From: an uncultured Gammaproteobacteria bacterium
GTDB taxonomy: Bacteria > Pseudomonadota > Gammaproteobacteria > UBA9214
Direction of reading: 5' to 3'
NCBI GenBank assembly: GCA_963712695.1
Contig: CAVQJD010000023.1
Span: 47,832 to 111,831 of the forward strand
Length of the DNA: 64,000 nucleotides
Under the pieces are notes generated by a model. That model did not search any database. It had not been told where the DNA came from and worked only from the letters and a program-made list of their open reading frames with translations. Below are positions 19,287 through 62,219 of the stretch, piece after piece (the stretch's first letter is position 1; each line of letters opens with the position of its first letter). The translations under genes and the position numbers were made by a program.

Positions 19287-20543
19287 ATGAACCTGTCCGA
19301 ACTCAAGCTCAAGCCTGCATCCGAACTGATCGAAATCGCCCAGGAAATGGGCATCCAGGACATTGCCCGCCAGCGCAAGCAGGAAATCATCTTTTCCATC
19401 CTCAAGTCGCACGCCAAGAAAGGCGAGGATATTTTCGGGAACGGTGTCCTCGAGATCCTCCAGGACGGGTTCGGCTTCCTGCGCTCGGCAGACAGCTCCT
19501 ACCTCGCCGGACCGGATGATATCTATGTATCCCCCAGCCAGATCCGCCGCTTCAGCCTGCGTACCGGCGATACCGTGGACGGCAAGATCCGGCCGCCGAA
19601 AGACAGCGAACGCTATTTCGCGCTGCTCAAGGTCAGCCAGATCAACTACGAAAAACCGGAAGCCGCCAAGAACAAGGTCGCCTTTGAAAACCTGACACCA
19701 CTGCATCCGAACGAGCGGCTGATACTGGAACGCGGCAATGGCAGTACCGAGGACATTACCGCACGCATCATCGACCTGGTGGCACCGCTGGGCAAGGGAC
19801 AGCGCGGCCTGATCGTGTCACCGCCCAAGGCCGGCAAGACCATGCTGCTGCAGAACGTGGCACAGTCGATCACCGCAAACCACCCGGAGTGCTTCATGAT
19901 CGTGCTGCTCATCGACGAGCGCCCGGAAGAAGTCACCGAGATGGCGCGCTCGGTGCAGGGCGAGGTGGTCTCCAGCACCTTCGACGAACCTGCCAGCCGT
20001 CATGTACAGGTCGCCGAAATGGTGATCGAGAAGGCCAAGCGCCTGGTTGAACACAAGCGCGACGTGGTGATCCTGCTGGACTCGATCACACGCCTGGGGC
20101 GTGCCTACAACACGGTAGTGCCGTCATCCGGCAAGGTGCTGACCGGCGGTGTGGACGCCAATGCCCTGCAGCGTCCCAAGCGTTTCTTCGGCGCGGCACG
20201 CAATATCGAGGAAGGTGGCAGCCTGACCATTCTCGCCACCGCCCTGATCGACACAGGTTCGCGCATGGATGACGTGATCTATGAAGAGTTCAAGGGCACC
20301 GGCAACCACGAAATCCACCTCGACCGCCGCATTGCCGAGAAGCGTGTTTACCCGGCGATCAACCTGAACCGTTCCGGCACACGTCGCGAGGAGCTGCTCA
20401 CCGATGCGAAAGAACTGCAGAAGATGTGGATCCTGCGCAAGCTGCTGCACCCGATGGACGAACTGGCCGCCATGGAATTCCTGCTCGACAAGCTCAAGGC
20501 CACCAAGAACAACGCCGAGTTTTTCGATTCCATGAAACGCTAG
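19287..20543 (+). CDS. rho: transcription termination factor Rho
   Basis: 418 aa, with an N-terminal RNA-binding domain and a RecA-type ATPase (PPKAGKT). Confidence 0.97.
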
Positions 20544-21219
20544 CGTGAAACGTGAGACGTGAAACGTGAAACGTGAAACGTGAAACGTGAAACGTGAAAC
20601 GTGAAAGGATAGGGGTAAATAGAACAATTGGCCACGGAAGCACACGGAAAAACACGGAAAATATAACAACAGATGTAGGGTGCGTTTTACGCACCGTGCG
20701 GGCCAGAAGCTCGCACGCTGCAGTACCACAGGCAAGTTAATAAGTGGCCACAGAATCCACGGAAAAACACGGAAAAATAAAAAATACAGGCTCGGGAGAT
20801 GTTTGCGCCCCATAAAGTGCGCAAAAGGAGTACAGTGCTTCCAGTGCTGCAGTAATCTGTTTTTCCGTGTTTTTCCGTGGATTCCGTGGCTATTTATCTT
20901 TTCACGTTTCACGTTTCACGTAAACATGATGCATATGCACAGCACTTCCGGTGCGTAAAACGCACCCTACATACCAGCCTGCAGTAATCTGTTTTTCCGA
21001 GTGCTTCCGTGGATTCCGTGGCTATTTATCTTCACGTTTCACGTTTCACGTTTCACGTAAACATGATGCATATGCACAGCACTTCCGGTGCGTAAAACGC
21101 ACCCTACATGCCAGCCTGCAGTAATCTGTTTTTCCGAGCGCTTCCGTGGATTCCGTGGCTATTTTTCTTTTCACGTCTCACGTCTCACGTCTCACGTTTC
21201 ACGCTTCACCTCTCACGCT
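20544..21219. repeat. composite H/B/P repeat locus 1 (rho | M48 peptidase)
   Basis: Nine tandem heptamers CGTGAAA/CGTGAGA (20544-20606). B boxes at 20629 and 20745. GTAG-palindrome at 20675-20695. Then a P'-B'-H' unit in tandem starting at 20847, 20979 and 21116 (periods 132 and 137 bp), ending in the inverted heptamer array 21168-21219. Confidence 0.95.
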
Positions 21220-22320
21220 TCACCCGTCATTGCCCAGATTGCGCAGGCGGTTGATGCGCAACTCGAGTGGCGGATGGGTGGCATACAGCCGGCTGGTCTT
21301 TTCCTGGAAGTTCCTGAACGGATTCACGATGAACATATGCTGCGTCGCGCGGTTCGCACCCCGGAACGGCTGCGCGCTGGTTGCCAGCTTCTCGAGCGCG
21401 GCAATCAGCCCCTCGGGGTGACGGGTCAGGCGCACGCTGGTTGCATCGGCCAGAAACTCACGCTGCCGTGACACCGCCAGCTGCACCAGCAGGGCAAACA
21501 CCGGCGCCAGGGCGGCAAAGGCCACGAGCGCCAGCATCACGAACACGGCATTCGCACCACCTTTTCCGGAACTGCGCGAGCGGTTCGAGAAATACAGCGC
21601 ACGCAGCGCCGCGTCGCTGACCAGTGCGATCAGGCCGACAATAACGCCCACGGCCGTGGCATAGCGAATATCCCAGTTCACGATATGACCCATCTCGTGA
21701 CCGATCACGCCCTGCAATTCCGCACGGTTGAGTGTATCCAGCAACCCGCGCGTGACACCGATGGCGGAACGGGCCGGGTTCATACCGGTGGCAAAGGCAT
21801 TCAGCGCCGGAGTATCGATAACGAACACACGTGGCTTGACGATGCCGGCCGCGATCGCCATTTCCTCGACCACATTGTGCAGCACGGGCTCCTCGTCGGC
21901 CGTGACCTCCTCGGCACCCGTCAGGCGCAGAATGATCCGGTCACCGCTGCGGAATGCAACCCATGACCACACCGCACCGATGCCGAACAGCACCAGTGAA
22001 CACCAGACGCCCCAGCGACTGATGAACCAGACAGTCTCCACTTCGGCGGGCAGACCGTACATGCCGAGCTGCAGCCCCCAGCCCAGCAGGTAACCCAGCA
22101 CGCCGAGGATCAGCAAAAGTGCACCCAGCAAGCGCAGCGTCGCACGCTGGTTGGCACGTGCAGCGGCCAGGAAGTCGGTACGCCGTAGCACCTTGTTGCG
22201 CAGCAACCGGTGCGACTGCCAGTTCGCCTGCAGCGGAATGCCACACTGGCGGCAGGTCCTGGCATGCGGGGAGTTGGCAGCACCACATTCCGGACACTGT
22301 TTGCTATCTGAGGGTGTCAT
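21220..22320 (-). CDS. M48 family metallopeptidase with N-terminal zinc ribbon
   Basis: CPECG...CRQCG ribbon, TM segments, and an HEMGH zinc site. Downstream of lemA, a commonly seen pairing. Confidence 0.8.
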   Translation of the reverse strand: MTPSDSKQCPECGAANSPHARTCRQCGIPLQANWQSHRLLRNKVLRRTDFLAAARANQRATLRLLGALLLILGVLGYLLGWGLQLGMYGLPAEVETVWFISRWGVWCSLVLFGIGAVWSWVAFRSGDRIILRLTGAEEVTADEEPVLHNVVEEMAIAAGIVKPRVFVIDTPALNAFATGMNPARSAIGVTRGLLDTLNRAELQGVIGHEMGHIVNWDIRYATAVGVIVGLIALVSDAALRALYFSNRSRSSGKGGANAVFVMLALVAFAALAPVFALLVQLAVSRQREFLADATSVRLTRHPEGLIAALEKLATSAQPFRGANRATQHMFIVNPFRNFQEKTSRLYATHPPLELRINRLRNLGNDG

Positions 22321-22352
22321 CCGGGTCAGTCAATCATTTGAAATGCATAAAC

Positions 22353-22396
22353 GCCACGGAAAAACGTTTCACGTTTTTCCGTGTGCATCCGTGGCC
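22353..22396. repeat. B-box-derived perfect hairpin (locus 2)
   Basis: CACGGAAAAACG (22355-22366), loop TTTCA, then CGTTTTTCCGTG (22372-22383), followed by CATCCGTGGCC. Lies between lemA and the M48 gene. Confidence 0.9.
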
Positions 22397-22419
22397 GGTT
22401 CTCACCTGGTCAGCATTAC

Positions 22420-23025: not shown

Positions 23026-23238
23026 CGTGAAACGTGAGACGTGAGACGTGAACGGTTAAGGAAACTCATGATATTTTGTTAAGCAATCTTTATGTAACTT
23101 ATTAAATAGTACGAGATTGCCACGCTTAGCTCGCAATGACGGAAACGTTTCAATAAAACAGAGCTTCCTTAATATCTTTCCGTGCTCTTCCGTGGATTCC
23201 GTGGCAATTCTTTATATCGCGTCTCACATCTCACGCTC
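23026..23238. repeat. composite repeat locus 3 (lemA | purD)
   Basis: Four forward heptamers (23026-23053), an AT-rich core, a B' box (23176-23208), and inverted degenerate heptamers (23218-23238) that overlap the last purD codons. Confidence 0.9.
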
Positions 23239-24507
23239 GACCGCACGATAGCCGATGTCGGTACGATAATAAACATCCGGCCAGTGGATGTGTCCGATAC
23301 AGGCATAGGCCTGTTGCTGTGCCGCGGCAATGGTGTCTCCCAGCGCACAGACACACAGCACACGTCCGCCGCTGGTCTTCGCGGCCGTGCCGTCCGCCAC
23401 GGTCCCGGCATGAAACACCTTGCATGGCATATCGTCTGCCTCCGCCAAACCCTTGATGATATCGCCCTTGCGATAGCTGTTCGGGTAGCCGCCTGCGGCC
23501 ATCACCACGCCGAGCGCCGCGCGCGTGTCCCACTCGGCCTTGACTGTGTCGAGTCGCCCATCCAGCGCGGCCAGGCACAGCTCCACCAGGTCGGAGCGCA
23601 GGCGGCACATGACAGGCTGTGTTTCCGGGTCACCGAAACGCACATTGAATTCCAGCACCCTGGGCACACCGTCTGTACCGATCATGAGTCCGGCGTAGAG
23701 AAAGCCGGTGAAGGTATTGCCTTCCGCCGCCATGCCGCGAATGGTCGGCAACATCACCTGCTGCATGACCTGTTCGTGAATGGCCGGTGTGACGACCGGG
23801 GCCGGCGAATAGGCGCCCATGCCTCCGGTATTGGGGCCGGTGTCGCCATTGTCACGCGCCTTGTGGTCCTGCGACGTGGCCAGCGGCAGGCAGTGCTCGC
23901 CGTCCACCATGGCAATAAAACTGGCCTCCTCGCCCTGCAGGAATTCCTCGATGACCACGCGGTGTCCGGCCTCGCCGAATACATTGCCGGCCAGCATATC
24001 CTGCACGGCGGCAGCGGCTTCCGCCTCGGTCTGCGCCAGGATCACGCCCTTGCCGGCAGCCAGCCCGTCGGCCTTGATCACAATCGGGGCGCCCTGTTCG
24101 TGAATGTAGGCAAGTGCGGCATCCAGCTCATGAAAACTGGCGTAGGCCGCCGTCGGAATCCGGTGGCGCCGGAGAAAGTCCTTGCTGAATGACTTGGAAC
24201 CTTCCAGCTGTGCGGCCCCGCGCGTAGGTCCGAAACACGGCAGGCCAACAGCGCGGAAGCGGTCGACAATCCCGGCCACCAGCGGCACTTCCGGCCCGAC
24301 AATGGTAAGGCCCACCGCGCTTGACTGCGCGAAGGCGATCAGCGCATCGATCTCGAGCACGTCGATAGCGACATTCTCGACACCCGGTTCACGCGCTGTC
24401 CCGGCGTTGCCCGGCGCGACAAACACGGTATCCGCCAGCGGCGACTGCGCGGCCTTCCAGGCCAGCGCATGCTCGCGTCCGCCATTGCCGATGATCAGGA
24501 TATTCAT
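23224..24507 (-). CDS. purD: phosphoribosylamine--glycine ligase
   Basis: 427-aa ATP-grasp PurD sequence (MNILIIGNGGREHALAWK...). Confidence 0.95.
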   Translation of the reverse strand: MNILIIGNGGREHALAWKAAQSPLADTVFVAPGNAGTAREPGVENVAIDVLEIDALIAFAQSSAVGLTIVGPEVPLVAGIVDRFRAVGLPCFGPTRGAAQLEGSKSFSKDFLRRHRIPTAAYASFHELDAALAYIHEQGAPIVIKADGLAAGKGVILAQTEAEAAAAVQDMLAGNVFGEAGHRVVIEEFLQGEEASFIAMVDGEHCLPLATSQDHKARDNGDTGPNTGGMGAYSPAPVVTPAIHEQVMQQVMLPTIRGMAAEGNTFTGFLYAGLMIGTDGVPRVLEFNVRFGDPETQPVMCRLRSDLVELCLAALDGRLDTVKAEWDTRAALGVVMAAGGYPNSYRKGDIIKGLAEADDMPCKVFHAGTVADGTAAKTSGGRVLCVCALGDTIAAAQQQAYACIGHIHWPDVYYRTDIGYRAVEREM

Positions 24508-24528
24508 GGTTGTACCTTATAACTGATA

Positions 24529-24976
24529 AATGGCCACGGAATCCACGGAAGAACACGGAAAGATAAAACACTCCAGAGCAGGAGGATGTAACAGGTACTC
24601 ACGTTTCCCTGAAATTTAATGGCCACGGAAACACACGGAAAGATGCAGCTCGTAGGGTGCACTCCGTGCACCATTACCGGCGCGTAAAACGCACCCTACA
24701 TTCCGTCATATCTTGTAATTTTTCCGTGTTCTTCCGTGGATTCCGTGGCCATTATTCGTTTCTGATTTTTCGTGTGCTTCCGTGACCACTCTTCTCGATC
24801 GCAGGGTGCACTCCGTGCACCATTACCGGTGCGTAAAACGCACCCTACATCTCATCCTGCATTAATCAATTTTTCCGTGTTTTTCCGTGGCTATTATTCG
24901 TATCTGATTTTTCCGTGTGATTCCATGTGCTTCCGTGGCCATTCTTCTTTTCACGTCTCACGTTTCACGCTTCACC
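24529..24976. repeat. composite repeat locus 4 (purD | purH)
   Basis: B boxes at 24529 and 24619. Compound GTAG-palindromes at 24652-24699 and 24802-24848. Several B' boxes. Inverted heptamers at 24948-24976. Confidence 0.95.
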
Positions 24977-24978
24977 CC

Positions 24979-26543
24979 TCAGTGCCGGAAGTGGCGCATC
25001 CCGGTGAACACCATCGCGATGCCGTGCTCGTTGGCAGCCGCGATGACCTCGTCGTCGCGCAGCGAGCCGCCGGGCTGGATCACCGCCACGATGCCCGCTT
25101 CCGCGGCCTGGTCGATGCCGTCGCGGAACGGGAAGAAGGCATCCGAGGCCATCACCGAACCCTTCACCTCGAGGCCCTCGTCCGCCGCCTTCAGGGCGGC
25201 CACCCGGGCGCTGTAGACGCGGCTCATCTGGCCCGCGCCGACACCGATGGTCATGCCGTCCTTGCAGTATACGATGGCGTTGGACTTGACGAACTTGCGC
25301 CACGCGCCAGGCGAACAGCAGGTCCTGCACCTGCTGTGCCGTTGGCGTGCGCTGCGTGACGACCTTCAGATCGTCCGCGTCAATCCGGCCCAGATCGCGG
25401 TCCTGCACCAGCAACCCGCCATTGACACGCTTGAAGTCCAGCACGGGCAGCGGCTCGTCTGCCCAGGTACCGCATTCCAGCACACGCACATTCTTCTTTG
25501 TCCGCCAGCACCGGCAGGGCGTGCGGATCGACGGCCGGTGCAATGATCACCTCGACGAACTGGCGCTCGATAATGGCCGCGGCAGTGGCCGCGTCCAGCG
25601 TACGGTTGAAGGCGATGATGCCGCCAAACGCCGAAGTCGGATCGGTTTTGAAAGCACGCTCGTAGGCCTCGAGCGGACTGGTACCCAGTGCCACACCACA
25701 GGGATTGGCATGCTTGACAATGACGCAGGCCGGCCCCTCGGTGAAGGATTTCACGCATTCCAGCGCGGCATCGGTATCCGCCACGTTGTTGTACGACAGT
25801 TCCTTGCCCTGCAGCTGGTGCGCGGTCGCGACGGAGGCCTCGCGCGGTTCGTGCTCGACGTAGAAGGCCGCATGCTGATGCGGATTCTCGCCGTAGCGCA
25901 TGGCCTGTACCTGGCGAAACTGCAGGTTCAGGGTGCGCGGAAAACCGACGTGTGCGCCGTCGGCATCGATTGCACCCAGGTAGTTGGCGATGGCGCCGTC
26001 GTAACGTGCGGTGTGTTCAAATGTCTTCACCGCCAGGCTGTAGCGCATGGCCGCCGGCACGGTTTTGCCGTTGGCGTGCATCGCCTCGAGCACAACCGGG
26101 TAATCGGCGTTATCGACCACTACGGTAACTGCAGCATGGTTCTTGGCCGCCGCGCGTAACAGGGTTGGCCCACCGATATCGATGTTCTCGATGGCCGTGG
26201 GCAGGTCGCAATCCGGACGTGCTACGGTCTGCTCGAACGGATACAGGTTCACGACCACCAGGTCGATGGGCAGGATGCCATTGGCCGTCATGACGGCCTC
26301 GTCGGTACCGCGGCGTCCGAGGATGCCGCCGTGAATACGTGGATGCAGGGTCTTGACGCGTCCATCCATCATCTCCGGGAAACCGGTGAAGTCGGACACC
26401 TCGGTGACGGTGACGCCGGCATCGGTCAACAGCCTGGCGGTGCCACCCGTAGACAGGATTTCCACACCGATCGCGTGCAGCGCACGTGCGAAGTCGACAA
26501 CCCCGCTCTTGTCGGACACGCTGATGAGCGCACGTGCGATCAT
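24979..26543 (-). pseudogene. purH: bifunctional AICAR transformylase/IMP cyclohydrolase PurH, interrupted by two frameshifts as assembled
   Basis: Three frames together give a full PurH: 25380..26543 ([14 protein letters not shown]...PVLADK), then [10 protein letters not shown]...LLFAWRVA, then [27 protein letters not shown]...GMRHFRH. Breaks lie near 25498 (an A/T run) and near 25298. Confidence 0.85.
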
Positions 26544-27905: not shown

Positions 27906-27906
27906 T

Positions 27907-28704: not shown

Positions 28705-28807
28705 GGAGCGAGTGTACCTCAATAATCGTACAAAAATGAATGACCTGCTGCGCACTCATGCCGGCTGTTCATGGACATGAAGCATTCGAAAAATGCTTAA
28801 AACAAAA

Positions 28808-29326
28808 AATGGCCACGGAATCCACAGAAGAACACGGAAAAAAAATTCGATCAGGAAAAGCTGATAAAGTTTTTGATTTTTACGCTCTCTGAGGGTAACA
28901 CCTGGTTAATGTAGGGTGCGCTGTGCGCACCATTGCCGGTGCGTAAAACGCACCCTACACCTGCTTGATTACGGCCTATTGTTGATTTATTTTTCCGTGT
29001 TCTTCTGTGGATTCCGTGGCCATTATTCTTTTCACGTCTCACCTCAATCCCCGGCGCGTAAAACGCACCCTACACCTGCTTGATGACGGGCCTGGTGTAT
29101 TTATTTTTCCGTGTTCTTCTGTGGATTCCGTGGCCATTATTCTTTTCACGTCTCACCTCAATTCCCGGTGCGTAAAACGCACCCTACACCTGATTCGATT
29201 ACGGGCCAGGTGTATTTATTTTTCCGTGTTCTTCCGTGGATTCCGTGGCCATTATTCTTTTCACGTGCCCCGTCTCACGTCTCACGTCTCACGTCTCACG
29301 TTAGTTTCACGTTTCACGTTTCACGT
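28808..29326. repeat. composite repeat locus 5 (DUF3426 gene | prmA)
   Basis: B box 28808-28843. Compound GTAG-palindrome 28911-28958. P'-B'-H' unit in tandem starting at 28936, 29051 and 29165 (periods 115 and 114 bp). Terminal inverted heptamer array 29257-29326 contains the prmA stop. Confidence 0.95.
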
Positions 29327-30223
29327 CCCACGCCTGATACCCGTCAGCAGCACCCACTCGTCACGCCGTTGCGGCGGCTCAAAATCGACCCATGCCGCGT
29401 AGGCCGAGCTGACCGCATCGGCCTGCTCCGCCAGGATACCGGTCAGCAGGATTTTGCCACCAGGACGCAGGTAACCGGCCAGTTCCGCGGCCAGTTCCTG
29501 CAGGGGATTGGCGAGGATATTGGCAATCACCAGGTCCACCGGCACCGAGTCGAGATCCTGCGGGAAGCACACGACGAAATTCGCGACAATCCCGTTGACC
29601 CGGGCATTTTCGCGGGTCGCCTCGAGCGCATTGGGATCGATGTCGGTGGCCACCACAAACCCTGCACCCAGCCGGCTGGCGGCGATGGCCAGGATGCCCG
29701 AACCACAGCCATAGTCGATGACGCGCTGCCCGGCCGGGGGATGTTTATCCAGCCACTCCAGACACATGGCCGTAGTGGCATGGGTGCCGGTACCAAAGGC
29801 AAAACCCGGGTCGAGGGTCACCACGACAGCATCCGGCGCCAGACAGGACTCACCGGAGGGACACACCCACAGACGCTCACCGAAACGCATCGGCCTGAAA
29901 GTCTCCCGCCAGGTGGTGGACCAGTCGCGATCTTCCAGCACGGTTACCGAAAGCCCGGGCACTGGATCCGCCAGCATGGCGCGCAACGCGGCCTCGACCG
30001 CCTGTGCATCGGCATCCGCGGAGAACAGCGCCACCACACGCGGATTGCGCCACACCGGCCGCGTGCCCGGTACGGGTTCGATAAGCAGCTCATCGGCCGC
30101 GTCCTGCAGCGTCACGGACTGCGCCCCCGCAGCCTCGAGCGCCGCCGTCACCGCCTCGACCTGCTCGCGCAGCACATCAATGGAAAATTGCAGCCAGGCT
30201 CTGGACAGTCTTTGAGACATCAT
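29321..30223 (-). CDS. prmA: ribosomal protein L11 methyltransferase
   Basis: ORF 29321..30343, start moved to MMSQRLSRAWLQF (30223). SAM-binding DYGCGSGILA motif. Confidence 0.9.
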   Translation of the reverse strand: MMSQRLSRAWLQFSIDVLREQVEAVTAALEAAGAQSVTLQDAADELLIEPVPGTRPVWRNPRVVALFSADADAQAVEAALRAMLADPVPGLSVTVLEDRDWSTTWRETFRPMRFGERLWVCPSGESCLAPDAVVVTLDPGFAFGTGTHATTAMCLEWLDKHPPAGQRVIDYGCGSGILAIAASRLGAGFVVATDIDPNALEATRENARVNGIVANFVVCFPQDLDSVPVDLVIANILANPLQELAAELAGYLRPGGKILLTGILAEQADAVSSAYAAWVDFEPPQRRDEWVLLTGIRRGT

Positions 30224-30780: not shown

Positions 30781-30828
30781 GTAGGGTGTAATACATGCAA
30801 GCTTCCCGGTGCGTAAAACGCACCCTCC
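30781..30828. repeat. GTAG-palindrome (P module) copy, locus 6
   Basis: GTAGGGTG ... CCGGTGCGTAAAACGCACCCTCC. Confidence 0.85.
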
Positions 30829-30959
30829 ATCTCATGGCGCAGAAGTGCAGACATGCGCGAATCGCGTGGGCAGATTTGTTTGCGGATAACATCCGCTCCT
30901 ACCGTGATTTACTGGGTTTGGTGTGTACAACCGACTTCCTGCCCTGCACCAGCGTCCCG

Positions 30960-32312
30960 CTAAAGTCCGAGCTTCTTTTCCAGATAATGAATATCCGTCA
31001 CCGCCGGCCATGAAAGCGGCATCGGTGCATGATATCGTGGTGCAGCGGCATGTTGGTCTTGATGCCGTCGATGACGATTTCGGTCAGCGCGACGCGCATG
31101 CGCGCCAGCGCCGAGGCACGGTTGTCGCCGTGCGCGATCAGCTTGCCGATCATGGAATCATAGTACGGCGGCACCCTGTAACCGTTGTAGATATGCGTAT
31201 CCATGCGGATGCCCGGGGCCGCCCGGGGCGTGGTAACTGGGTGATAGTGCCGGGTGACGGCATGAAGTTTTTCGGGTCTTCCGCGTTGATGCGGCATTCG
31301 ATGGCATGGCCGCGGATCTGTGATGTCCTCCTGCTTGTACGTCAGGCCCATCGCCGGCCGCGATATGCAGCTGTTCCTTGACGATATCGACGCCGGTGAC
31401 CATTTCGGTGACCGGGTGCTCCACCTGCACGCGGGTATTCATTTCGATGAAATAGAACTCGCCGTTCTCGGTACAGGAATTCGAAAGTACCGGCACCGCG
31501 GTACTTGAGTCTGGCGACAGGCCTCCGCACAGCGCTCGCCCATGTCCTGGCGCTGCTCCTCGGTAATGCCCGGCGCCGGCGCTTCCTCCACCACTTTCTG
31601 GTGGCGGCGCTGCATGGAACAGTCGCGCTCGCCGAGGTGGATGGCGTTACCCTCGCCGTCGCCCAGCACCTGGAATTCGATATGGCGCGGCTTCTCCAGG
31701 AATTTCTCCATGTACACCGACGTCGTTACCGAACGCGTTCTTGCGCCTCGGTGCGGGTCAGCGAGATCGCCTCGAGCAGATGCGCCTCGGCGTGCACCAC
31801 GCGCATGCCGCGCCCGCCACCGCCGCCGGCGGCCTTGATGATGATCGGGTAGCCGATCTCGCGGGCCAGTTTGAGATTGGTGGCGTCATCTTCCCCCAGC
31901 GGACCGTCGCGAACCCGGCACACAGGGCACACCGGCCTCCTTCATGGCGCGGATGGCGGCGACCTTGTCGCCCATGGTGCGAATGGTTTCCGGCGCGTGG
32001 CCCGATGAAGATAAAGCCGCTGCTGCTCCACCTGCTCGGCGAAGTCGGCGTTCTCGGACAGAAACCCGTAGCCCGGATGAATCGCACCGCATCGGTCACC
32101 TCGGCGGCGCTGATGATGGCCGGGATATTCAGATAGCTGTCCGCGGACGGCGCCGGACCGATGCAGACGCTCTCGTCCGCCAGCAGCACGTGCTTGAGAT
32201 CCCGGTCGGCCTCGGAATGCACGGCCACCGTGCTGATGCCCAGCTCGTGGCAGGCACGCAGGATACGCAGGGCGATTTCGCCCCGATTGGCGATGACAAC
32301 TTTCTCCAGCAT
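30960..32312 (-). pseudogene. accC: biotin carboxylase AccC, about a dozen or more frameshifts as assembled
   Basis: Conserved AccC segments are spread over all three minus-strand frames: [167 protein letters not shown]. Confidence 0.85.
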
Positions 32313-35977: not shown

Positions 35978-36069
35978 TAAGTACAGGTCTACGAAAGCAA
36001 TAATTGCGATAGGAATGTCGGTTGCACGGCACCCCTTGATCAGGTTCCAGCATCCGACACTAAATTGAT

Positions 36070-37565: not shown

Positions 37566-37612
37566 CTGTGCATTAGCTGACTTTAACTTAATGCAAGCTC
37601 GGCATAATTAGA

Positions 37613-44178: not shown

Positions 44179-44229
44179 CTCGCCAACTGAAATTTCAATT
44201 AAAATCGAAATGAGCAGGTACCTCCCTTG

Positions 44230-48673: not shown

Positions 48674-50011
48674 ATGGGCATGTTTAGCAAGAAGGTAGTC
48701 TCATTTGCATCATCACTTGTATTTTTGGGGGCATTTACTCAAACCGCCTTCGCCACCAACGGCTCATTTCTAATAGGTTACGGCGCAAAAAGCCGTGGTA
48801 TGGGTGGCGCTGGAGTCGCATATGCGCAGGATTCTCTCGTAAGCGCTACAAATCCGGCAGGTATGTCTGATGTCGGCATCCGCTTCGACGGCGGCCTGAT
48901 GATATTCAATCCAGAACGCAGTGCATGGGTGCCTGGCTTTTCCGGTAAATCCGAGATTGACAGCGGCGCCACCATCTATGCAATACCTAATATTGGCTTC
49001 AATTATCCCTTTAACAGGAAACTCACCGTGGGCTTTGCTTTTGTTGGCGCCGGTGGCGGCGGCACCCGCTACAATGAAAATTTCTTCGATTTCGGCAACC
49101 CGGCCAATCTGGGGCCGACACTCGGCGTGAATCTGGCACAGGCCATCATGTCCCCATCCTTTGCATACAATGTCACCAAGAAGCAAAGCATCGGGGCGAG
49201 CCTACTACTCGGGATACAGACCTTCAGGGCCTTCGGACTGGATGCATTCGGGGATGCTGGCTTTTCTATCGACCCAGACAATCTGACATCGCGTGGCAAT
49301 GACTGGTCGTATGGTGCAGGTGTAAGATTTGGATGGCGAGGCAAATTCTACGATGACAAACTCACTCTGGGCGCCGTTTATTCCTCGCGAATGTACATGA
49401 CAAAATTCGACAAGTATAAGGGGCTATTTGCCGAGCAAGGCGATGCTGACATTCCCGAGCAATATGCCATAGGGTTGGCTTTCAAAGCCACTGACAAGGC
49501 GACTGTGGCTTTTGATATCCAGCGGATCAATTACGGTGATATCGCCTCCTTCAGCAATCCCGGTCCGATCAGGTTTCTTCCACTGCCTACAGCAGCAGAT
49601 GAACGACTCATGGGTATGAATAACGGCCTGGGATTTGGGTGGCAGGATATGACCATTTACAAGCTCGGCTTGAACTATGACTACAATGATAAATACAGTT
49701 TCCGTGCCGGCTGGAACTATGGCAAGAAGCCAATGTGTGATGGAGGCACATATAACAACATTGACGGCATTACATCACCGGTAGACAAATGCAGCGTGGA
49801 TATACTTGCCAATACGTTGGCACCTGCTGTCGTGGAGCACCATCTGACACTCGGCATGTCCTACCGGCCCAGCAAGAAAGTGGAATGGACCGTTGGTCTC
49901 ATGCATGCATTCAGAGAGGATGTTGTTAAATTCAACGACTTTTCCGGTGATAACATCAAGATCAGCATGAACCAGTGGGCTGGTGATCTATCATTTGGAT
50001 ATAACTTCTAA
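48674..50011 (+). CDS. outer-membrane transport protein, OmpP1/FadL/TodX family
   Basis: Signal peptide, an N-terminal hatch-like GYGAKSRGMGGAGVA motif, beta-barrel periodicity, and a terminal aromatic (...SFGYNF). Confidence 0.85.
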   Translation: MGMFSKKVVSFASSLVFLGAFTQTAFATNGSFLIGYGAKSRGMGGAGVAYAQDSLVSATNPAGMSDVGIRFDGGLMIFNPERSAWVPGFSGKSEIDSGATIYAIPNIGFNYPFNRKLTVGFAFVGAGGGGTRYNENFFDFGNPANLGPTLGVNLAQAIMSPSFAYNVTKKQSIGASLLLGIQTFRAFGLDAFGDAGFSIDPDNLTSRGNDWSYGAGVRFGWRGKFYDDKLTLGAVYSSRMYMTKFDKYKGLFAEQGDADIPEQYAIGLAFKATDKATVAFDIQRINYGDIASFSNPGPIRFLPLPTAADERLMGMNNGLGFGWQDMTIYKLGLNYDYNDKYSFRAGWNYGKKPMCDGGTYNNIDGITSPVDKCSVDILANTLAPAVVEHHLTLGMSYRPSKKVEWTVGLMHAFREDVVKFNDFSGDNIKISMNQWAGDLSFGYNF

Positions 50012-50084
50012 TAGCGCTTGCAGACAAACCATCAGTTAACTCACGACTTGCCTTGCCAACCCAGTGAGTGTGGAGGATATTTTT

Positions 50085-51356
50085 GTGAAACAGAATAAAA
50101 CGCTAACAAGTACACTCTTTGCGCTCGGTATTGCTGCGACACAGCTGCCTCTACTACAAGCAGCCCCGATTATCGAACTCAGGGTAACCGGCGGTCAATT
50201 TCATATGGGTGTTTTTACCCCAACTGGCCCGGTACCGTATAGTTTTACCGACAGTAGCTACAATCTTATCACGGACTTTCCCACAACGATCGGCTGGGAC
50301 ACCACAGCGGGTAACACATCGGCCCAACCCGGCACTATCGTGGCATTCGACTTTGGTAGCCCATTTGTCAACACATTCAACACTACCTGTGACCCACAAG
50401 TAGTTGATGACTGTATCAACAATCCCCACACCCCGGTTACAGGTACGGTCAATGGTACATCCCTGATTATCGCCGACGGCGATCCGATCACGGTCGACAT
50501 CAATGCCATGTATGCAAACTGGAACGGCGTAAACTTTAACCAGGGCGGCACAACCGGAGCAGGAATTGCCTATCCGGGGGCAGCATTCGAGTTCCCCTTT
50601 ACCAGCACGGTCAGTAATGTCGACCCCGTAGCAGGCACGTTTAACTATGACATGACCTGGCAATCCCTGATTGTTGGTGGTCCGTTCAATGGCCAAACTG
50701 GTACCTGGCGGTTTACCGGGACCGGCGTCGTTGACCTGACAGGACCTACAAATGACCCGAAAACAGACCCCGGCTTGACATTATTAAATAATAATTTCGC
50801 CACGATCATGCTGACCTCCACCCAGGTTGCGGCATCCTACCCGCTGCCAACCACACACAGTCCCTGCACGGATTGCTGGGACTGGACGGTTACCGGTCTT
50901 GCCGCAAACGGTGACAGTGCACGGGTTGTGCTGCCGCTCTCTTCAGGATTCCCGGCAGGTGGTGAAGTCCTGAAGTATGACAGTGTGGCGTTAGCATGGG
51001 TGCCTTTTGACACCAGTACCGGTGATTCGGTCAGCTCTGCTCCGATTGCCGGCGGTATCTGCCCGGAGACGGGGGATCCCTCGTACGTCACCCCCCCCCA
51101 AACCGGTCATGTCTGCATCCAGATCGATGCCACCGATGGTGCCGCGAACGACGATAGCGGCCTGGATAGTGCGATCGTTGACCCGGGCGGCATATTTGTA
51201 CCGCTAGCAGTCAAGCCAGTGACGCAGATCAAAGACGGAAGTGCATGCAGTCTTGGCAATCGAAATGCTGGCCCGGCACAGGCTGCGGAATGGCTGCTAC
51301 TTGCTGGCTTCCTCGGCTGGCTGGGGATGCGCCGCAAGGAAACATACCGGCGCTAG
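50085..51356 (+). CDS. secreted protein, paralog of 37613..38209 with an extra domain and a different C-terminal anchor-like tail
   Basis: ORF 50064..51356. Preferred start is the GTG at 50085, 7 nt after GGAGGA. Shares VTGGQFHMGVFTP, NWNGVNFNQGG and WQSLIVGGPFNGQTGTW with the 198-aa protein. The C-terminus reads ...DATDGAANDDSGLDSAIVDPGG...CSLGNRNAGPAQAAEWLLLAGFLGWLGMRRKE. Confidence 0.75.
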   Translation: MKQNKTLTSTLFALGIAATQLPLLQAAPIIELRVTGGQFHMGVFTPTGPVPYSFTDSSYNLITDFPTTIGWDTTAGNTSAQPGTIVAFDFGSPFVNTFNTTCDPQVVDDCINNPHTPVTGTVNGTSLIIADGDPITVDINAMYANWNGVNFNQGGTTGAGIAYPGAAFEFPFTSTVSNVDPVAGTFNYDMTWQSLIVGGPFNGQTGTWRFTGTGVVDLTGPTNDPKTDPGLTLLNNNFATIMLTSTQVAASYPLPTTHSPCTDCWDWTVTGLAANGDSARVVLPLSSGFPAGGEVLKYDSVALAWVPFDTSTGDSVSSAPIAGGICPETGDPSYVTPPQTGHVCIQIDATDGAANDDSGLDSAIVDPGGIFVPLAVKPVTQIKDGSACSLGNRNAGPAQAAEWLLLAGFLGWLGMRRKETYRR

Positions 51357-51381
51357 AACTGCTGCAAGGTTTTGCACGAAA

Positions 51382-51412
51382 AGGCGCAGTCAGCAATGAC
51401 TGCGCCTTTTTT
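51382..51412 (+). terminator. rho-independent terminator
   Basis: GGCGCAGTCA, loop GCAA, TGACTGCGCC, then T7. Lies 26 nt after the stop at 51356. Confidence 0.85.
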
Positions 51413-51541
51413 TAGGGATACTTAGCTGTTTGGAACAAGCACCATGATATTGACGCGCCGACAGCTATCTGTTCCAATGATGCAAATTGTTTACAATTCA
51501 GACTCTTGGTTGTTTCATCATCACCCTGGGAAATAATTGCC

Positions 51542-52102
51542 ATGACAAGATCCTATATTGCTTTGCTGGTAACGATACTGTCCTTTGTCAGCCAATCCTA
51601 GACTGCGAGTGCAGACGAGACTGTCTATCGGATTCAGCCCGGAGACATCCTGGACATCTCGGTCTGGAAGGAAGAAGACCTGATTCGACAGGTTCTGGTG
51701 CGTCCGGATGGAGGAATTTCATTTCCGCTGGCCGGTGATCTGCAGGCGGCCGGCAGATCGATTGCTGAACTGCAGAGTCTGATCATCGAACGTCTCGAAA
51801 AATACATCCCTGATCCGCTGGCTACGGTTGCGGTACTCAAGCTGGACGGGAACAAGGTGTATGTCATCGGCAAGGTGGCGCGGCCGGGTGAGTTTATTGC
51901 CAACCGGTACCTGGATGTCGTCCAGGCGTTGAGTATGGCCGGCGGCATGACCCCTTATGCCGCGGCCAACAAGATATCGATCCTGCGCCGGACCAATGGC
52001 AAGCTGACATCCATACCGTTTAAATATGGCGACATAGAGAAGGGAGATAACCTGCAGCAGAATATTATTCTGCAGAGCGGGGATGTGGTGCTGGTTCCGT
52101 GA
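51542..52102 (+). pseudogene. polysaccharide export protein (Wza-like periplasmic type) with an in-frame TAG in the signal peptide
   Basis: ATG at 51542 gives MTRSYIALLVTILSFVSQS, then TAG (51599-51601), then TASADETVYRIQPGDILDISVWKEEDL...SLBB-like C-terminus, all in one frame. The track ORF starts only at 51698. Confidence 0.8.
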
Positions 52103-52175
52103 GGTGAAACGTGAAACGTGAAACGTGAAACGTGAAACGTGAAAAATCATAATGGCCACGGAAGCACACGGAATA
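52098..52175. repeat. repeat locus 8 (H array + B box)
   Basis: CCGTGAG contains the export-gene stop. Six heptamers GTGAAAC follow (52104-52145), then a two-copy CACGGAA box (52152-52175). Confidence 0.95.
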
Positions 52176-52365
52176 ATATTTAAGAAAAGACCTTTTTGAT
52201 ATTTTGGCAGCGAAGTCAAAATAATTGCTTAACAATAGCTACTGCGTATTTCTCCGGGCTGGATTCCCGCTTTCGCGGGAATGACATCTTGAGTATGGGA
52301 TTCCAGGACTGTTTTGACAGTGTGGAAATATTAAATTTACGCAGCGTCCAAAGAGCCATTGCCAT

Positions 52366-54280: not shown

Positions 54281-56035
54281 ATGGCTGAACTCGCACTGGA
54301 ACAAACTCTGGATTTTGGCGATTACCTGGCGGCCTTCCGGCGCCGGCGCGGGATGATTATGCTGGTCGCCGGCATCGTCTTCCTGCTGGGTCTGATCACG
54401 GCCCTGGTCTGGCCGCCGACCTACCAGGCCTCGGCGACCATCCTGATTGAGGAGCAGGAGATCCCCACCGAGCTGATCCAGTCGACGGTAACCAGCTACG
54501 CTTCCCAGCGCATCCAGGTCATCAACCAGCGGGTCATGTCGCGTAGCAACCTGCTCGAGATCATCGAGAAATACGACCTCTACGAGCGGGAGCGCCGGCT
54601 GAACACCATCGAGGAAGTCCTGCAGAACATGCGCGATGACATCAGCATCGACATGATCAACGCCGAGGTCATGGACCCGCGTACCGGGCGCCCGACTGCA
54701 GCCACCATCGCCTTCACCCTGGGCTTTGCCAGTGAAAATCCGCAGCAGGCGCTCAAGGTCGCCAACGAGCTGACCACGCTCTACCTGGACGAAAACCTGA
54801 AATCCCGCACCGAGAAGGCCGCGGAAACCTATGACTTCCTGTCCGTTGAATCGAGCCGGCTGAGTACCGAAATCAGCCGTCTGGAAAAGGAACTGGCGGA
54901 ATTCAAGGAACGCAATATCAACACCCTGCCGGAGTTGCGCGATCTCAATACCCAGATCCTGGAACGCACAGAACGGGAAATTTCCGATCTCGATACCCAG
55001 ATCCGGACGCTGGATGAGAGAAAGATCTACCTGCAGGGTCAGCTTGGCGTGCTGGATCCGTATGGCAGTACTGGCAATGTGCTGAGTTCTTCAGCACGCC
55101 TGGAGGCACTGCGCACAGAATATGTCGGACTGGCCAGCCGCTACTCGCCGGATCATCCGGACGTCGCGCGGGTCAAGCGCGAGATCCGGGCGCTGGAACT
55201 GGAAACCGGGCAGTCCGCCTCGACCGATGACCTGCAGGCCCAGTTGCGGACCCTGCGCGATGACCTGGCAACGGCCAAACAGACCTACACCGCCGAACAC
55301 CCGGACGTGAAAAGCCTGACCCGGCAAGTCGCCAGGCTGGAAGCCGAGATCAAAGAGGTCTCATCCTCGCCCGGCTCAAACCTGCCAACCGCCACGCCTG
55401 ACAATCCGGCTTATGTCACCCTGAGCTCCCAACTCGCGGCGGCCGACACGGAAATACACTCCCTGCGCACCAAGCGCGCCCAGCTGGCGGACAAGGTGGC
55501 GCAGTATGAAACCAGGCTGGTACAGACACCCAAGTCCGAACAGGAATACCGGGGCATTGTCCGCGATCTGGAAAACTCGACCCAGCGCTACCAGGAAATC
55601 CGGGCCAAGCAGATGACGGCGGAAGTGGCCCAGCAGATGGAGAAAGAACGCAAGGGCGAGAAATTCACCCTCATCGACCCGGCCATCCTGCCGGAAGAGC
55701 CGGTCAGCCCGAACCGGGGCGCCATCATCTTCCTCAGCCTGGTACTGGCCCTGGGTGCAGGTGTGGGCTCGGCCGCTATCAGCGAGAGCCTGGACAACGC
55801 CGTACGCGGCGTAAAGGGGCTGACCAGTCTGCTGCATACCACCCCGCTGGCCGTCATCCCCTACCTGTCCACGGCAGCAGAAAGCGACGCGCAAAAACGG
55901 CGGCGTTACCTGATAGTCGGCTCGATCGTGGCCGGCATCATCATCCTGTTGCTGCTGATCCACTTCCTGGTCTCGCCTCTGGATGTAATGTGGTTCAGGG
56001 GATTACGGAAAGTCGATCAGCTGGTTGGCGAATAA
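54281..56035 (+). CDS. polysaccharide chain-length determinant (Wzz/GumC-like, PEP-CTERM-locus type)
   Basis: N-terminal Wzz block with TM (…LVAGIVFLLGLITALVWPPTYQASATILIE), a long coiled coil, and a C-terminal TM pair. Confidence 0.85.
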   Translation: MAELALEQTLDFGDYLAAFRRRRGMIMLVAGIVFLLGLITALVWPPTYQASATILIEEQEIPTELIQSTVTSYASQRIQVINQRVMSRSNLLEIIEKYDLYERERRLNTIEEVLQNMRDDISIDMINAEVMDPRTGRPTAATIAFTLGFASENPQQALKVANELTTLYLDENLKSRTEKAAETYDFLSVESSRLSTEISRLEKELAEFKERNINTLPELRDLNTQILERTEREISDLDTQIRTLDERKIYLQGQLGVLDPYGSTGNVLSSSARLEALRTEYVGLASRYSPDHPDVARVKREIRALELETGQSASTDDLQAQLRTLRDDLATAKQTYTAEHPDVKSLTRQVARLEAEIKEVSSSPGSNLPTATPDNPAYVTLSSQLAAADTEIHSLRTKRAQLADKVAQYETRLVQTPKSEQEYRGIVRDLENSTQRYQEIRAKQMTAEVAQQMEKERKGEKFTLIDPAILPEEPVSPNRGAIIFLSLVLALGAGVGSAAISESLDNAVRGVKGLTSLLHTTPLAVIPYLSTAAESDAQKRRRYLIVGSIVAGIIILLLLIHFLVSPLDVMWFRGLRKVDQLVGE

Positions 56036-59108: not shown

Positions 59109-59522
59109 ATGCAGTTTGCAACAGGTTGGAGTCACCCGCTACGCCGGCTCTTCCAGGTGCTGACCCTTGGCTGGGCCGCACTGATCTACTACCTCTCACA
59201 TCAGCCGGGCATCACTTACCCCCTGCTGTTCGCGCAACAGGACAAGCTCATGCACTTTATCGCCTACGGCGTGCTGGGCTTTCTGGCTATGGGTTCCTGC
59301 AATGCAGGCCGTTCCCGGCACCGGGCCGTGCACTACTGGCTGGTGGTGTCACTGGTTGGCGTCTACGGCGTGCTGGATGAGGTCCACCAGTACTTCGTCC
59401 CCGGCCGCCACAGCGATGTGCTCGATGTGCTGGCCGATATCAGCGGTGGCCTGCTCGGCGCCGGGCTGATGTTCCTGCTGCTGCGCAGGTTCACTCCACC
59501 GTCAACACCGACAGCCAGGTAG
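59109..59522 (+). CDS. VanZ family membrane protein
   Basis: Within track ORF 58638..59522, starting at MQFATGW. About four TM helices and VanZ-like blocks (KLMHFIAYGVLGFL, DEVHQYFVPGR, DVLADISGGLLG). Confidence 0.7.
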   Translation: MQFATGWSHPLRRLFQVLTLGWAALIYYLSHQPGITYPLLFAQQDKLMHFIAYGVLGFLAMGSCNAGRSRHRAVHYWLVVSLVGVYGVLDEVHQYFVPGRHSDVLDVLADISGGLLGAGLMFLLLRRFTPPSTPTAR

Positions 59523-59867
59523 GGTGCGTTTTACGCCCCGGGCGCGGTTTATGAAGTACGCCTTTACAGGATTCAGACAGGTCAATTAATGGCCACGGAA
59601 TCCACGGAAAAAATAATGCGGGTGTATAGGCAGGGTGCGTTCTACGCCCCGGGCAAGGTGCACAAAGTGCACCCTACAAAAGCTCTTCAATGCACCCTGC
59701 ATGCAATTTTTCCGTGGATTCCGTGGCCATTACCCATCGCGCATGGAATGCGCTCCTGCAGCAACGATTACGACGTGATTCACCTTTCACGTCTCACGTC
59801 TCACGTCTCACGCCCCATGCATCCTGCAGGAATTATTTCCATGTTCTTCCGTGGATTCCGTGGCCAT
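59519..59867. repeat. composite repeat locus 11 (vanZ | cysQ)
   Basis: P copy overlapping the vanZ TAG (59519-59537). B box 59588-59614. Compound palindrome 59631-59677. B' 59706-59730. Inverted heptamers 59783-59813. B' 59836-59867. Confidence 0.95.
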
Positions 59868-59894
59868 TTGTTTCATCGCGCGGTCATCGTGCGC

Positions 59895-60710: not shown

Positions 60711-60860
60711 GGGTATTTCCTTGTATTGATGATTGTAAAAAGCTGCCCTGCCTGCTCCAGGCGCACCGATGTTTCATTACACAACTGGCAGGACATGGAA
60801 ACATGGCAGGCAAGTATACCCTGCCAATGTGGTCCCGTGCGCCTGCCCCCCTTATCAATG

Positions 60861-61117
60861 CAGGGTGCGTTATACGCACCAGCCAGAGCACAGGCACTCC
60901 CGGTGCGTAAAACGCACCCTACGCCTGCGGGATTATTTTTTCCGTGTTCTTCCGTGGGTTCCGTGGCTAATAATCCTTTTTTCACGTCTCACGTCTCACG
61001 CTCGTCACCATTGCATCCAGCAGGCACTATTTCCGAATTCTTCGCTGGTTTCCGTGGCCATTATTTCCCTGCAGGGTGCACCTTGTGTACCTTTACCGTT
61101 GCGTGGAACGCACCCTG
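60861..61117. repeat. composite repeat locus 12 (cysQ | HAD gene)
   Basis: P 60861-60880, P' 60899-60922, B' 60934-60970, inverted heptamers 60976-61003, degenerate B' 61028-61061, compound palindrome 61072-61117. Confidence 0.95.
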
Positions 61118-61190
61118 CGCCGGCGCCTGCACCAACCGACATTGCGTTCTGCTACCATTGACAACGGCTCTCAAGCAGACGGGTTTGCAA

Positions 61191-61865
61191 ATGATCCACT
61201 GGCAGGAAATCGACTGTGTATTCCTCGATATGGACGGGACGCTGCTGGATCTGCATTTCGACAATCATTTCTGGCGCGAACATGTCCCGCTGCGCTATGC
61301 CGAGCAACACCGGCTCGACATCGAGTCTGCGAAATCCGAACTGGTCCCGCGATTCCGGCTCAAGGAAGGCACGCTGGACTGGTATTGCGTGGAATACTGG
61401 AGCCGCGAACTCGGGCTCGACATTGTTGCACTCAAGCGCGAGGTGCATCACCTGATCGCAGTACACGAACATGTACCCGAATTTCTCCGGTGCGTGCGCG
61501 CATCCGGCCGGCGTGTCGTCATGCTGACCAATGCCCATGCCAGAAGCCTGGAACTCAAAATGGAGGTGACCGGACTGGCCGGCGCTTTCGACGCCCTGGT
61601 GTGTTCGCACGACCTCGGCTATCCGAAGGAAGACCTGCGCTTCTGGTCCGAACTGGAACGCCGGGAACACTTCAGCAGGGACAGCACTCTGTTCATCGAC
61701 GACAGTCTTGCCGTGCTGCGCACGGCGCGTGAGTACGGCATCGGCCACCTGCTGGCAGTGAGCAAACCCGACACCCGCTCACCGCTACGCGAGATAGACG
61801 AATTCATCTCCATTGAGGGATTCGACGAGATCATGCCGACGGAGAAGGTGAAACGTGAGACGTGA
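61191..61865 (+). CDS. HAD-superfamily hydrolase (YrfG-type nucleotidase-like)
   Basis: Within track ORF 60543..61865, whose N-terminal part is repeat-derived. Start at MIHWQEIDCVFLDMDGTLL (DxDGT motif I), then MLTNA and IDDS motifs. The last codons (KVKRET, stop) lie inside the heptamer array. Confidence 0.8.
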   Translation: MIHWQEIDCVFLDMDGTLLDLHFDNHFWREHVPLRYAEQHRLDIESAKSELVPRFRLKEGTLDWYCVEYWSRELGLDIVALKREVHHLIAVHEHVPEFLRCVRASGRRVVMLTNAHARSLELKMEVTGLAGAFDALVCSHDLGYPKEDLRFWSELERREHFSRDSTLFIDDSLAVLRTAREYGIGHLLAVSKPDTRSPLREIDEFISIEGFDEIMPTEKVKRET

Positions 61866-62219
61866 GACGTGAGACGTGAAAGGTGAAAGGTGAAAGGTGA
61901 AAGGTGAAAGGTGAAAGGTGAAAGGTGAAAGGTGAAAAAATATTAGCCACGGAATCCACGGAAGAACACGGAAAAATAAAAAATTCTGAGAGAAGCTCAG
62001 CTTACACAGCCGTCGGTAATCAGGGCGACACACTCACACTGGTCATTCCCGCGCAGGCGGGAATGACATGGCTGGAGAGTCGCGACATAGTGTGTGTAAA
62101 GGCGTAGGGTACGTTTTTAATTTTTTCGTGGATTCCGTGGCTATTCTTGTTTCACGTTTCACGCCTCACCTTTCACGTTCACCTTTCACGTCTCACGCCT
62201 CACACCTCACGTTTCACGC
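61848..62219. repeat. composite repeat locus 13 (HAD gene | ykgJ-like gene)
   Basis: Thirteen forward heptamers (61848-61938: 1 GTGAAAC, 3 GTGAGAC, 8 GTGAAAG, 1 GTGAAAA). B box 61942-61976. ATTCCCGC-N4-GCGGGAAT hairpin 62042-62067. P-like 62104-62118. B' 62119-62144. Inverted heptamer array 62147-62219. Confidence 0.95.

Follow-up and report, generated by a model that had tools for sequence, protein, structure and literature searches.

Stop-bearing heptamer arrays at gene 3' ends are the outer module of mobile palindromic mosaics in a gammaproteobacterial contig

Arrays of a stop-bearing heptamer, (CGTGARA)n, adjoin the 3' ends of eight genes in a 64,000-nt stretch of contig CAVQJD010000023.1 (assembly GCA_963712695.1), from an uncultured gammaproteobacterium of the UBA9214 lineage. 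We refer to this whole stretch as the window. An earlier reading, made from the letters alone and hereafter called the sequence-only reading, had taken the arrays themselves to be the inserting elements. We find instead that the arrays are not free-standing. They constitute one module, designated A, of a polar, inverted mosaic, and they are usually its outermost and polymorphic part. The explanation that we favor, with a probability of about 0.55, is that the arrays are the slippage-prone outer edge of mobile palindromic mosaics and that they lie flush with stop codons because stop-bearing units are tolerated at such positions.

We located the arrays with Tandem Repeats Finder and with a motif chain scan for GTGA at 7-nt spacing over the window. 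The arrays described previously were all recovered at their stated places, together with several unlisted ones (Table 1), and no array of four or more units appeared in 20 mononucleotide shuffles of the window. The repeat is a heptanucleotide microsatellite arranged head to tail with the unit consensus N-G-T-G/A-A-R-R (NGTGARN), in which G1, T2, A4, and the purines at positions 5 and 6 are nearly invariant and position 7 and the A/G choices differ by lineage. With a TGA recurring at 7-nt intervals on the stop-rich strand, three successive units suffice to close every frame. The complement, (TTTCACG)n or (TCTCACG)n, is open in every frame and produces spurious long open reading frames (ORFs); the three-frame arithmetic and the spurious ORFs of the earlier account were thus fully reproduced. 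Variant units such as GTAAG and GTTAG still hold a stop, and ≈7 of ≈190 units lack one. Because units were detected through GT.A and G1 shows the same invariance, this retention of stops fails to isolate selection on the stops themselves.

Two further modules accompany the arrays. Module B, ATGGCCACGGAATCCACGGAAGAACACGGAAA, comprises three CACGGAA motifs ≈10 bp apart and occurs in 21 copies in 64 kb, versus 0.09 expected. Module C consists of GTAG and a perfect hairpin, GGTGCGTTTTACGCACC, and is present in 17 copies (three or fewer mismatches) versus 0 expected; all of these copies are intergenic, intermixed with A and B, and found in both orientations. The usual order on the stop-rich strand is A-B-C, with two halves inverted relative to one another (A-B-C…B-A), and whole A-B-C units can be tandemly duplicated with periods of 137 and 115 bp. 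A and B are co-oriented 31:1, with the purine strand reading inward. Because this strand reads inward from both sides of the element, it meets any flanking gene 3' end in the sense orientation. The earlier observation that the stop-rich strand is the sense strand wherever an array touches a 3' end is therefore true for all eight genes but is largely built into the geometry of the element. The same geometry explains why LemA, a tandem downstream gene, meets the open strand upstream of its start, where the array at 23026-23053 lies ≈48 nt from the start and antisense to the gene. Likewise, because its two halves lie inverted, the spacer between the HAD and ykgJ genes folds as one giant hairpin (RNA fold of -194.5 kcal/mol, z = -15), the outer stem of which contains the stop codons of both genes.

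Module B also forms compact pairs. We found 52 B(+)/B(-) pairs that are 60-250 nt apart, small, and noncoding and that have terminal inverted repeats; one such pair, in contig L149, folds at -53 kcal/mol (z = -10). Conservation of the pairs ends ≈4-6 nt beyond GCCACGG, at AATG on one side and CATT on the other; the AT-rich flanks may, but cannot be shown to, contain a TA duplication. An Rfam scan of the window returned no family at gathering score, and a literature string search with the B and array sequences retrieved no paper containing them. Several other interpretations of these modules were tried and rejected. The arrays are not target-site duplications, as the flanking arrays are inverted and not direct, and B is not a small ORF (ATGGCC...), as its ATG is not conserved. 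A "landing pad" model, in which B inserts into the loops of pre-existing array hairpins, fits contigs L164, L168, and L214 but is contradicted by arrays inside B pairs in L096, L103, L128, and L173.

All eight stop coordinates given previously were correct, and each stop lies within or directly beside an array, always on the sense strand of the gene. Pfam matches identify an M48 peptidase, purD, prmA, a Poly_export/SLBB protein, a HAD hydrolase, and a CxxCxxCC (YkgJ-like) protein among these genes. The M48 stop (21220-21222) is supplied by the last array of its spacer (21169-21223), and the units CGTGAGA TGTGAGA (≈23220-23236, minus strand) encode the purD tail REM and stop (23224-23226). Arrays at 29261-29332 (minus strand) supply the prmA stop (29321-29323) together with the tail GT, the HAD tail KVKRET and stop (61863-61865) come from the array at 61847-61937, and the ykgJ stop (62214-62216) is supplied by the outermost unit of the array at 62149-62219. 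The native TGA of purH (24979-24981) is in 7-nt register with the array at 24949-24975. The sequence-only reading had assigned the stop to the TGA of a repeat unit in prmA, HAD, ykgJ, and the export gene. We confirmed this for the first three, whereas the export-gene stop (52100-52102) falls in a truncated unit, GTGAG, that lies 5 and not 7 nt before the next GTGA. Five arrays are not at a gene 3' end: those starting at 20900, 21030, 59785, and 60980 are inside mosaics, and the one at 23026 is upstream of LemA. Elements border two other gene 3' ends without being flush with them, namely those of inositol monophosphatase (stop 59895) and of the ORF at 63075-63995 (minus strand, stop 63075), the latter 78 nt from the array at 62943-62997. 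The tails of two genes themselves resemble heptamer units: that of rho, ATGAAACGC (20532-20543), contains TGAAACG, and that of purD, GAGCGTGAGATGTGA (23224-23240), reads as two units. Such unit-like native ends could reflect either junction microhomology or conversion by the array.

To compare orthologous spacers, we used syntenic loci from homology searches (76-90% identity). The spacer after prmA is a plain, repeat-free 58-160 nt in L214, L215, L216, and L217 versus a 570-nt mosaic in the window, and the spacer between LemA and the M48 gene holds a mosaic in L218 that is absent from the window. Inverted arrays in the purD-LemA spacer are also present in L214, L217, and L218 but not in L216, which has no A or B in any of the four spacers compared. 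Because empty orthologous sites exist, the elements are mobile, and the earlier proposal that they insert is borne out. L218, which has no A or B after purH, contains inverted stop-free 8-mer arrays, GCAAAGAC and GTCTTTGC, that bracket the spacer (1115-1586, 5108-5268); there, the array begins 20 nt past the purH stop and is not flush with it.

The same comparisons show that the arrays slip, as unit counts differ between relatives. The HAD gene ends in 13 units in the window (...PTEKVKRET) versus 3 in L128 (...PTDRVKGEG), and ykgJ has 10 units versus 4 in L128, with its terminal ...GHA kept and a first-unit stop of either TGA or TAA. After purH, there are 4 units in the window, 5 in L112 (AGTGAGA), 2 in L217, 4 in L221, and 3 in L222; after purD, the window has 2 and L221 has 7. 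L221 and L222 have an identical purD and an otherwise identical spacer over the part compared, yet differ by one unit after purH. As the sequence-only reading had anticipated, slippage alters only the protein tail.

The C termini of rho (...FFDSMKR) and purH (...MRHFRH) are identical to those of repeat-free relatives; for rho, the relatives among the matches listed are at most 85% identical, all lack arrays, and served as the repeat-free control. Such identity, which the sequence-only reading had named as evidence that would refute it, holds for these two genes; it does not hold for the others, in which the array encodes only one to three residues. The M48 protein ends in ...LGNDG in the window versus ...LGND in relatives (+1 residue), and PrmA ends in ...IRRGT versus ...VRR in L217 (+2 residues), placing these junctions at the extreme 3' end, where the earlier reading had put them. 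A purD length of 427 amino acids is common to most close relatives, and only the last residue(s) vary (...AREK, ...ERET, ...EREM). Native C termini have therefore not been shortened, contrary to what had been suggested. The purD proteins P0005, P0007, and P0008 are 8-9 amino acids longer and end in ...ERETRAGAVRLD. In L216, the source of P0008, no array follows purD (11248-11411), and the 8 additional residues look like the result of losing the stop without a nearby back-up.

The B-bearing element is widespread in sediment metagenomes and sediment Gammaproteobacteria. Its 18-mer core occurs in at least 120 metagenome contigs, mostly as compact inverted pairs of 60-250 bp, and a subset of these contigs also has heptamer arrays of lineage-specific units (AGTGAGA, GGAGTGA, GGCGTGA, and GGGTGAA), the unit type being uniform inside one genome and different across genomes. 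Among the metagenome arrays followed by B, 10 of 14 start where an ORF of 100 amino acids or more has its stop. Across the window and the metagenome contigs, the distance from the stop to the first strict unit is -15 to +15 nt, mostly in 7-nt register, and we found no abutting 3' end whose sense strand is the pyrimidine (open) strand of an array. For B copies that have no array, the nearest stop is ≈9-130 nt away. When ORFs are classified crudely, an array adjoins B on 17 of 81 gene 3' sides versus 0 of 59 5' sides (Fisher p = 4e-5), the latter count being that obtained after removal of five internal window copies misclassified via spurious ORFs. Given the array starts at stops, the 3'-side bias, and the absence of a counter-example, the association with stop codons exceeds what geometry provides, in a set of loci that were chosen for carrying B, several of which are orthologous and thus not independent, and whose ORF contexts are heuristic.

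We suggest that these observations are best explained by tolerance of stop-bearing units at the edge of a mobile element. Each half element consists of A, then B, then often a REP-type GTAG hairpin, and the two halves face one another such that the whole spacer can fold. Such elements are gained and lost at orthologous spacers, and their arrays grow and shrink by slippage. Insertion, expansion, or spacer deletion could bring an array flush to a gene end or a few codons into it, and spacer loss, possibly via microhomology with TGA-containing gene ends, would leave arrays flush. With UGA or UAA in every unit, any entering frame would be closed within three units, and the cost would be limited to replacement of the stop and of one to three terminal residues. 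Junctions that reach deeper into the gene would be removed by selection, and stop-free sequence over a stop codon would lead to long read-through. The sequence-only reading had likewise proposed that the arrays are tolerated because they end translation at once; the stop-bearing units are present as it described, and we infer that their stop content is the reason for the tolerance. Consistent with this, the variants GTAAG and GTTAG keep a stop, the stop-free 8-mer array of L218 stands off from the purH stop, and MacGregor reasoned in the same way for TAACTGA repeats (PMC4679880); the L218 array and the longer purD of L216 offer anecdotal contrasts in support.

Several points weigh against this explanation. 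G1 and the purines at positions 5 and 6 are conserved as strongly as the stop, although stop function does not require them, and arrays reach 13 units, though three suffice. Some arrays are internal to mosaics or, as at LemA, upstream of a gene start, where stops are irrelevant. Neutral tolerance also gives no obvious reason for the absence of arrays beside B on 5' sides, as judged from the crude ORF heuristics behind the 3'/5' classification. The uniformity of the unit within genomes and its divergence between them imply a homogenizing process or a trans-acting factor, neither of which the model specifies. Finally, we identified neither a transposase nor a RAYT gene among those ORFs of the window that were scanned, no search being aimed at a B-flanked transposase, nor a target duplication at the B pairs.

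A possible but doubtful alternative is that the inverted arrays and B are selected RNA modules of 3' ends, functioning as unidirectional or bidirectional terminators or as mRNA-stabilizing hairpins like those of REP/BIME elements. Polarity would then be fixed by an A/purine-rich 5' arm and a U-rich 3' arm, and the stops would be a by-product of the GUGA-rich arm. The giant and compact hairpins formed by the spacers fit this idea, as do the array-only hairpins between convergent genes in L164 and L168, the location of 17 of 29 classified B pairs between convergent genes, and the restriction of arrays to 3' sides. In addition, B read outward gives CCGUGGAUUCCGUGG followed by a U-rich tail, which a terminator scan flags. 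However, the stem of this flagged B(-) hairpin with its T-rich tail has only 6 pairs, 2 of which are G-U, and the stems in general are long and interrupted, are not rich in GC, and lack a canonical U-tract. Terminator-like totals are modestly above those of shuffles (19 versus 12.2 and 14 versus 10.5), and on the transcribed strand of the B stems G-U mismatches are not in excess, at 15 versus 14 for A-C, in a comparison of low power. The elements are also dispensable in close relatives, as they are missing from the orthologous spacers, and a full mosaic lies in the spacer between purH and purD, genes that form one operon in Escherichia coli.

A more far-reaching proposal, which we consider unlikely, is that the arrays are a selected, stop-anchored 3'-end module that is read by a genome-specific GUGARR factor or that loads Rho via the C-rich antisense strand. 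If so, translation termination would be linked either to the formation of transcript 3' ends or to protection against antisense transcription, and housekeeping genes would have ceded their stop codons and last residues to a fast-evolving microsatellite.

Also unlikely in our view is a reading in which the heptads would be recognition sites for a factor that reads 7-nt repeats in DNA or RNA, or in which Rho would load on the antisense strand, which is C-rich and G-poor, and the loading site would block antisense transcription into the gene. Proteins that read such a period exist: contiguous WATCACW heptads, the core TCAC of which is the complement of GTGA, are the binding sites of the ribbon-helix-helix omega repressor of pSM19035, and on RNA HutP recognizes UAG triplets with a 7-nt spacing. 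The near invariance of G1, T2, A4, and the purines at positions 5 and 6 alongside a position 7 that varies by lineage would be expected of such sites, and a unit type uniform per genome and different between genomes would be expected under co-evolution with the factor. Yet no candidate protein was identified, the link to omega consists of the resemblance to the TCAC core, array length varies from 2 to 13 units, and orthologous sites can do without an array. DNA binding, moreover, provides no reason for arrays to start exactly at stop codons.

Insertion could instead be targeted to a stop codon or a GTGA-like gene end, with microhomology to the terminal heptamer producing flush junctions without any trimming. 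Every junction is within two codons of the native stop, and native ends are unit-like in rho (TGAAACG), purD (...GAG CGT GAG...), and purH (a TGA in register). We nevertheless find targeting very unlikely: arrays abut TAG and TAA stops too, the B copies without arrays are at some distance from stops, no recombinase or target duplication was identified, and selection combined with microhomology-mediated deletion would give the same pattern.

Some ORFs in this region are broken. Relative to L214, purH (24979-26543) has two 1-nt insertions, near 25500 and 25299, that distribute it over three frames, which indicates that the assembly may contain indel errors, and accC (≈30800-32500) is fragmented, with one ORF joining the accB C terminus to the accC N terminus; these splits are either assembly indel errors or pseudogenes. 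Comparable splits occur in accC, dus, and the M48 gene of L217. Although every ORF running into an array is bound to end in it, we regard an artifact of indel-prone assembly and mechanical ORF calling as extremely improbable, as protein alignments extend to the last residues of the orthologs and the same junctions and the overall array/gene-end pattern recur in independent metagenome contigs from both JGI and NCBI.

Table 1. Heptamer arrays and mosaic elements in the window. A, heptamer array; B, triple-CACGGAA block; C or REP, GTAG hairpin.
Feature	Positions	Stop-rich strand	Units	Composition
Array	20544-20606	+	9	
Array	23026-23053	+	4	
Array	52103-52144	+	6	
Array	61847-61937	+	13	
Arrays	20900-20920, 21030-21057, 21169-21223	-		
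Arrays	24949-24975, 29261-29332, 59785-59812, 60980-61000	-		
Arrays	62149-62219, 62943-62997	-		
Mosaic, rho/M48 convergent spacer	20544-21223			A(+) 20544-20606 directly after rho TAG; B-like 20630-20662; C hairpin 20675-20695; B(+) 20747-20764; three tandem 137-bp B(-)/A(-)/C units with B at 20873, 21005, 21142, A at 20900, 21030, 21169-21223, and C at 20950, 21087
purD-LemA spacer	23026-23240			B(-) 23188-23205; inverted partner array 23026-23053 (+)
Mosaic, purH-purD spacer	24510-24981			Array 24949-24975 (-); B/B-like blocks 24870-24940, 24732-24749; REP hairpins 24655-24700, 24828-24848; inverted B(+) 24533-24550 beside purD start
Mosaic after prmA	28790-29332			Three tandem 115-bp A-B-C units 28936-29266; inverted B(+) 28812-28829 beside DUF3426 gene start
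Export-gene end	52100-52175	+	6	Heptamers 52103-52144; half B block ATGGCCACGGAAGCACACGGAAT 52153-52175
Mosaic downstream of inositol monophosphatase (stop 59895, -)	59519-59894			REP hairpins 59519, 59630; B pair 59592(+)/59710(-); internal array 59785-59812 (-); B(-) 59847-59864, ≈28 nt from stop
Mosaic upstream of HAD gene	60860-61100			REP pair 60860-60922; B(-) 60950-60967; internal array 60980-61000 (-); degenerate B(-) 61041-61058
Giant palindrome, HAD/ykgJ convergent spacer	61847-62219		13 and 10	A(+) 61847-61937, 13 units; B(+) from 61946; interior ATTCCC...GGGAAT hairpin; B(-) 62124-62141; A(-) 62149-62219, 10 units
Half mosaic	62780-62997	-	7-8	B(-) 62816; REP 62868; B(-) 62916; array 62943-62997 of CGTGAGA units

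The elements are strongly clustered, as the first 20 kb of the window has no A, B, or C and a lower-GC island at ≈34000-52000 (0.45-0.54 versus ≈0.60) is almost free of them. Genes of this island function in polysaccharide export and chain length (Poly_export/SLBB at 51698-52102; Wzz/GNVR follows just outside the island, at 54281-56035). One more hairpin repeat, the fourth, is ATTCCCGCGCAGGCGGGAAT (ATTCCC-N8-GGGAAT); it is found within mosaics at 62042-62067 and 52263-52282, and a variant of it, CATTCCGGCGCAGGCCGGAATC, is present in the L216 and L217 spacers; we presume a resemblance to Neisseria dRS3. Two contigs that also carry B contain long arrays of the unrelated heptamers CCTGCCT, CTGTCTT, and CTGGATT (L118, 4174-4330; L154, 1-82), the main units of which are stop-free on both strands, with edge variants such as TCCTGAC and CTGAATT that carry a stop. 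Among viral contigs from IMG/VR (L081-L093), 13 stretches have 3-4 CGTGARA units without B, and two contigs have 2 or 3 arrays each.

These arrangements mean that the stops and last residues of prmA, purD, the M48 peptidase, and the HAD hydrolase can come from a slippage-prone microsatellite. This microsatellite differs between near-identical contigs of different samples and represents an unusual source of C-terminal variation. The complementary strand, with its long spurious ORFs, is a trap for gene callers, and the mosaic family may influence 3'-end formation.

Parts of this architecture resemble known repeat families. Repetitive extragenic palindromes (REPs) are defined by a GTAG tetranucleotide followed by a hairpin, and REP/BIME (bacterial interspersed mosaic element) sequences and REPINs are high-copy intergenic palindrome mosaics of alternating orientation, lying for the most part behind gene 3' ends and in convergent intergenic spacers. 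Module C shares the signature of GTAG and a short palindrome, and the mosaic as a whole shares the high copy number, extragenic placement, and alternating orientation; we know of no heptamer microsatellite or triple-CACGGAA block in BIMEs. The B pairs are similar to MITE-like (miniature inverted-repeat transposable element-like) palindromes such as Correia/NEMIS, ERIC, and RUP in being 60-250 bp noncoding inverted repeats with AT-rich flanks, presence/absence variation, and hairpins. BOX elements are modular, with a variable number of tandem boxB units. The mosaics likewise have a tandemly variable module, but here it is a 7-nt, stop-bearing unit at the outer edge that is fused to ORF ends.

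Other repeats share the 7-nt period. Cyanobacterial short tandemly repeated repetitive (STRR) heptamers are one example, and heptanucleotide long simple sequence repeats (LSSRs) are another (Mrazek et al. 2007, as described in PMC4679880). Both share with the window arrays the period, copy-number change by slippage, and a sporadic phylogenetic distribution, but neither is reported to form polar modules of palindromic elements or to be anchored on stop codons. The arrays also recall fail-safe stops, the shared idea being that stops just past the primary stop limit read-through; Ho and Hurst report no evidence of selection favoring such additional stops in bacteria (Ho and Hurst 2019, PMC6764699). 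If the stop content of the arrays were under selection, they would be a counter-example.

The closest precedent is the TAACTGA heptamer, which occurs as direct repeats in marine Beggiatoaceae, cyanobacteria, and Bacteroidetes (MacGregor 2015, PMC4679880). In forward orientation it stops all three frames, 13 of the published arrays extend over the stop codon of the gene upstream, and MacGregor argued that such arrays can sit only at the periphery of ORFs (PMC4679880). Like the window arrays, these are tandem, intergenic 7-nt units of sulfur-oxidizing Gammaproteobacteria with three-frame stops, and the concept of three-frame-stop heptamers over upstream gene ends is thus already published. TAACTGA arrays, however, lie mostly a few nucleotides upstream of starts in 2-6 direct copies, whereas the window arrays, with NGTGARN units, lie at gene 3' ends as hairpin arms and so fall outside that family. 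Nor have TAACTGA repeats been described as inverted pairs or with a B block or REP partner. A mosaic family of heptads, triple-CACGGAA blocks, and REP hairpins, with a microsatellite edge systematically fused to stop codons, appears not to have been described before.

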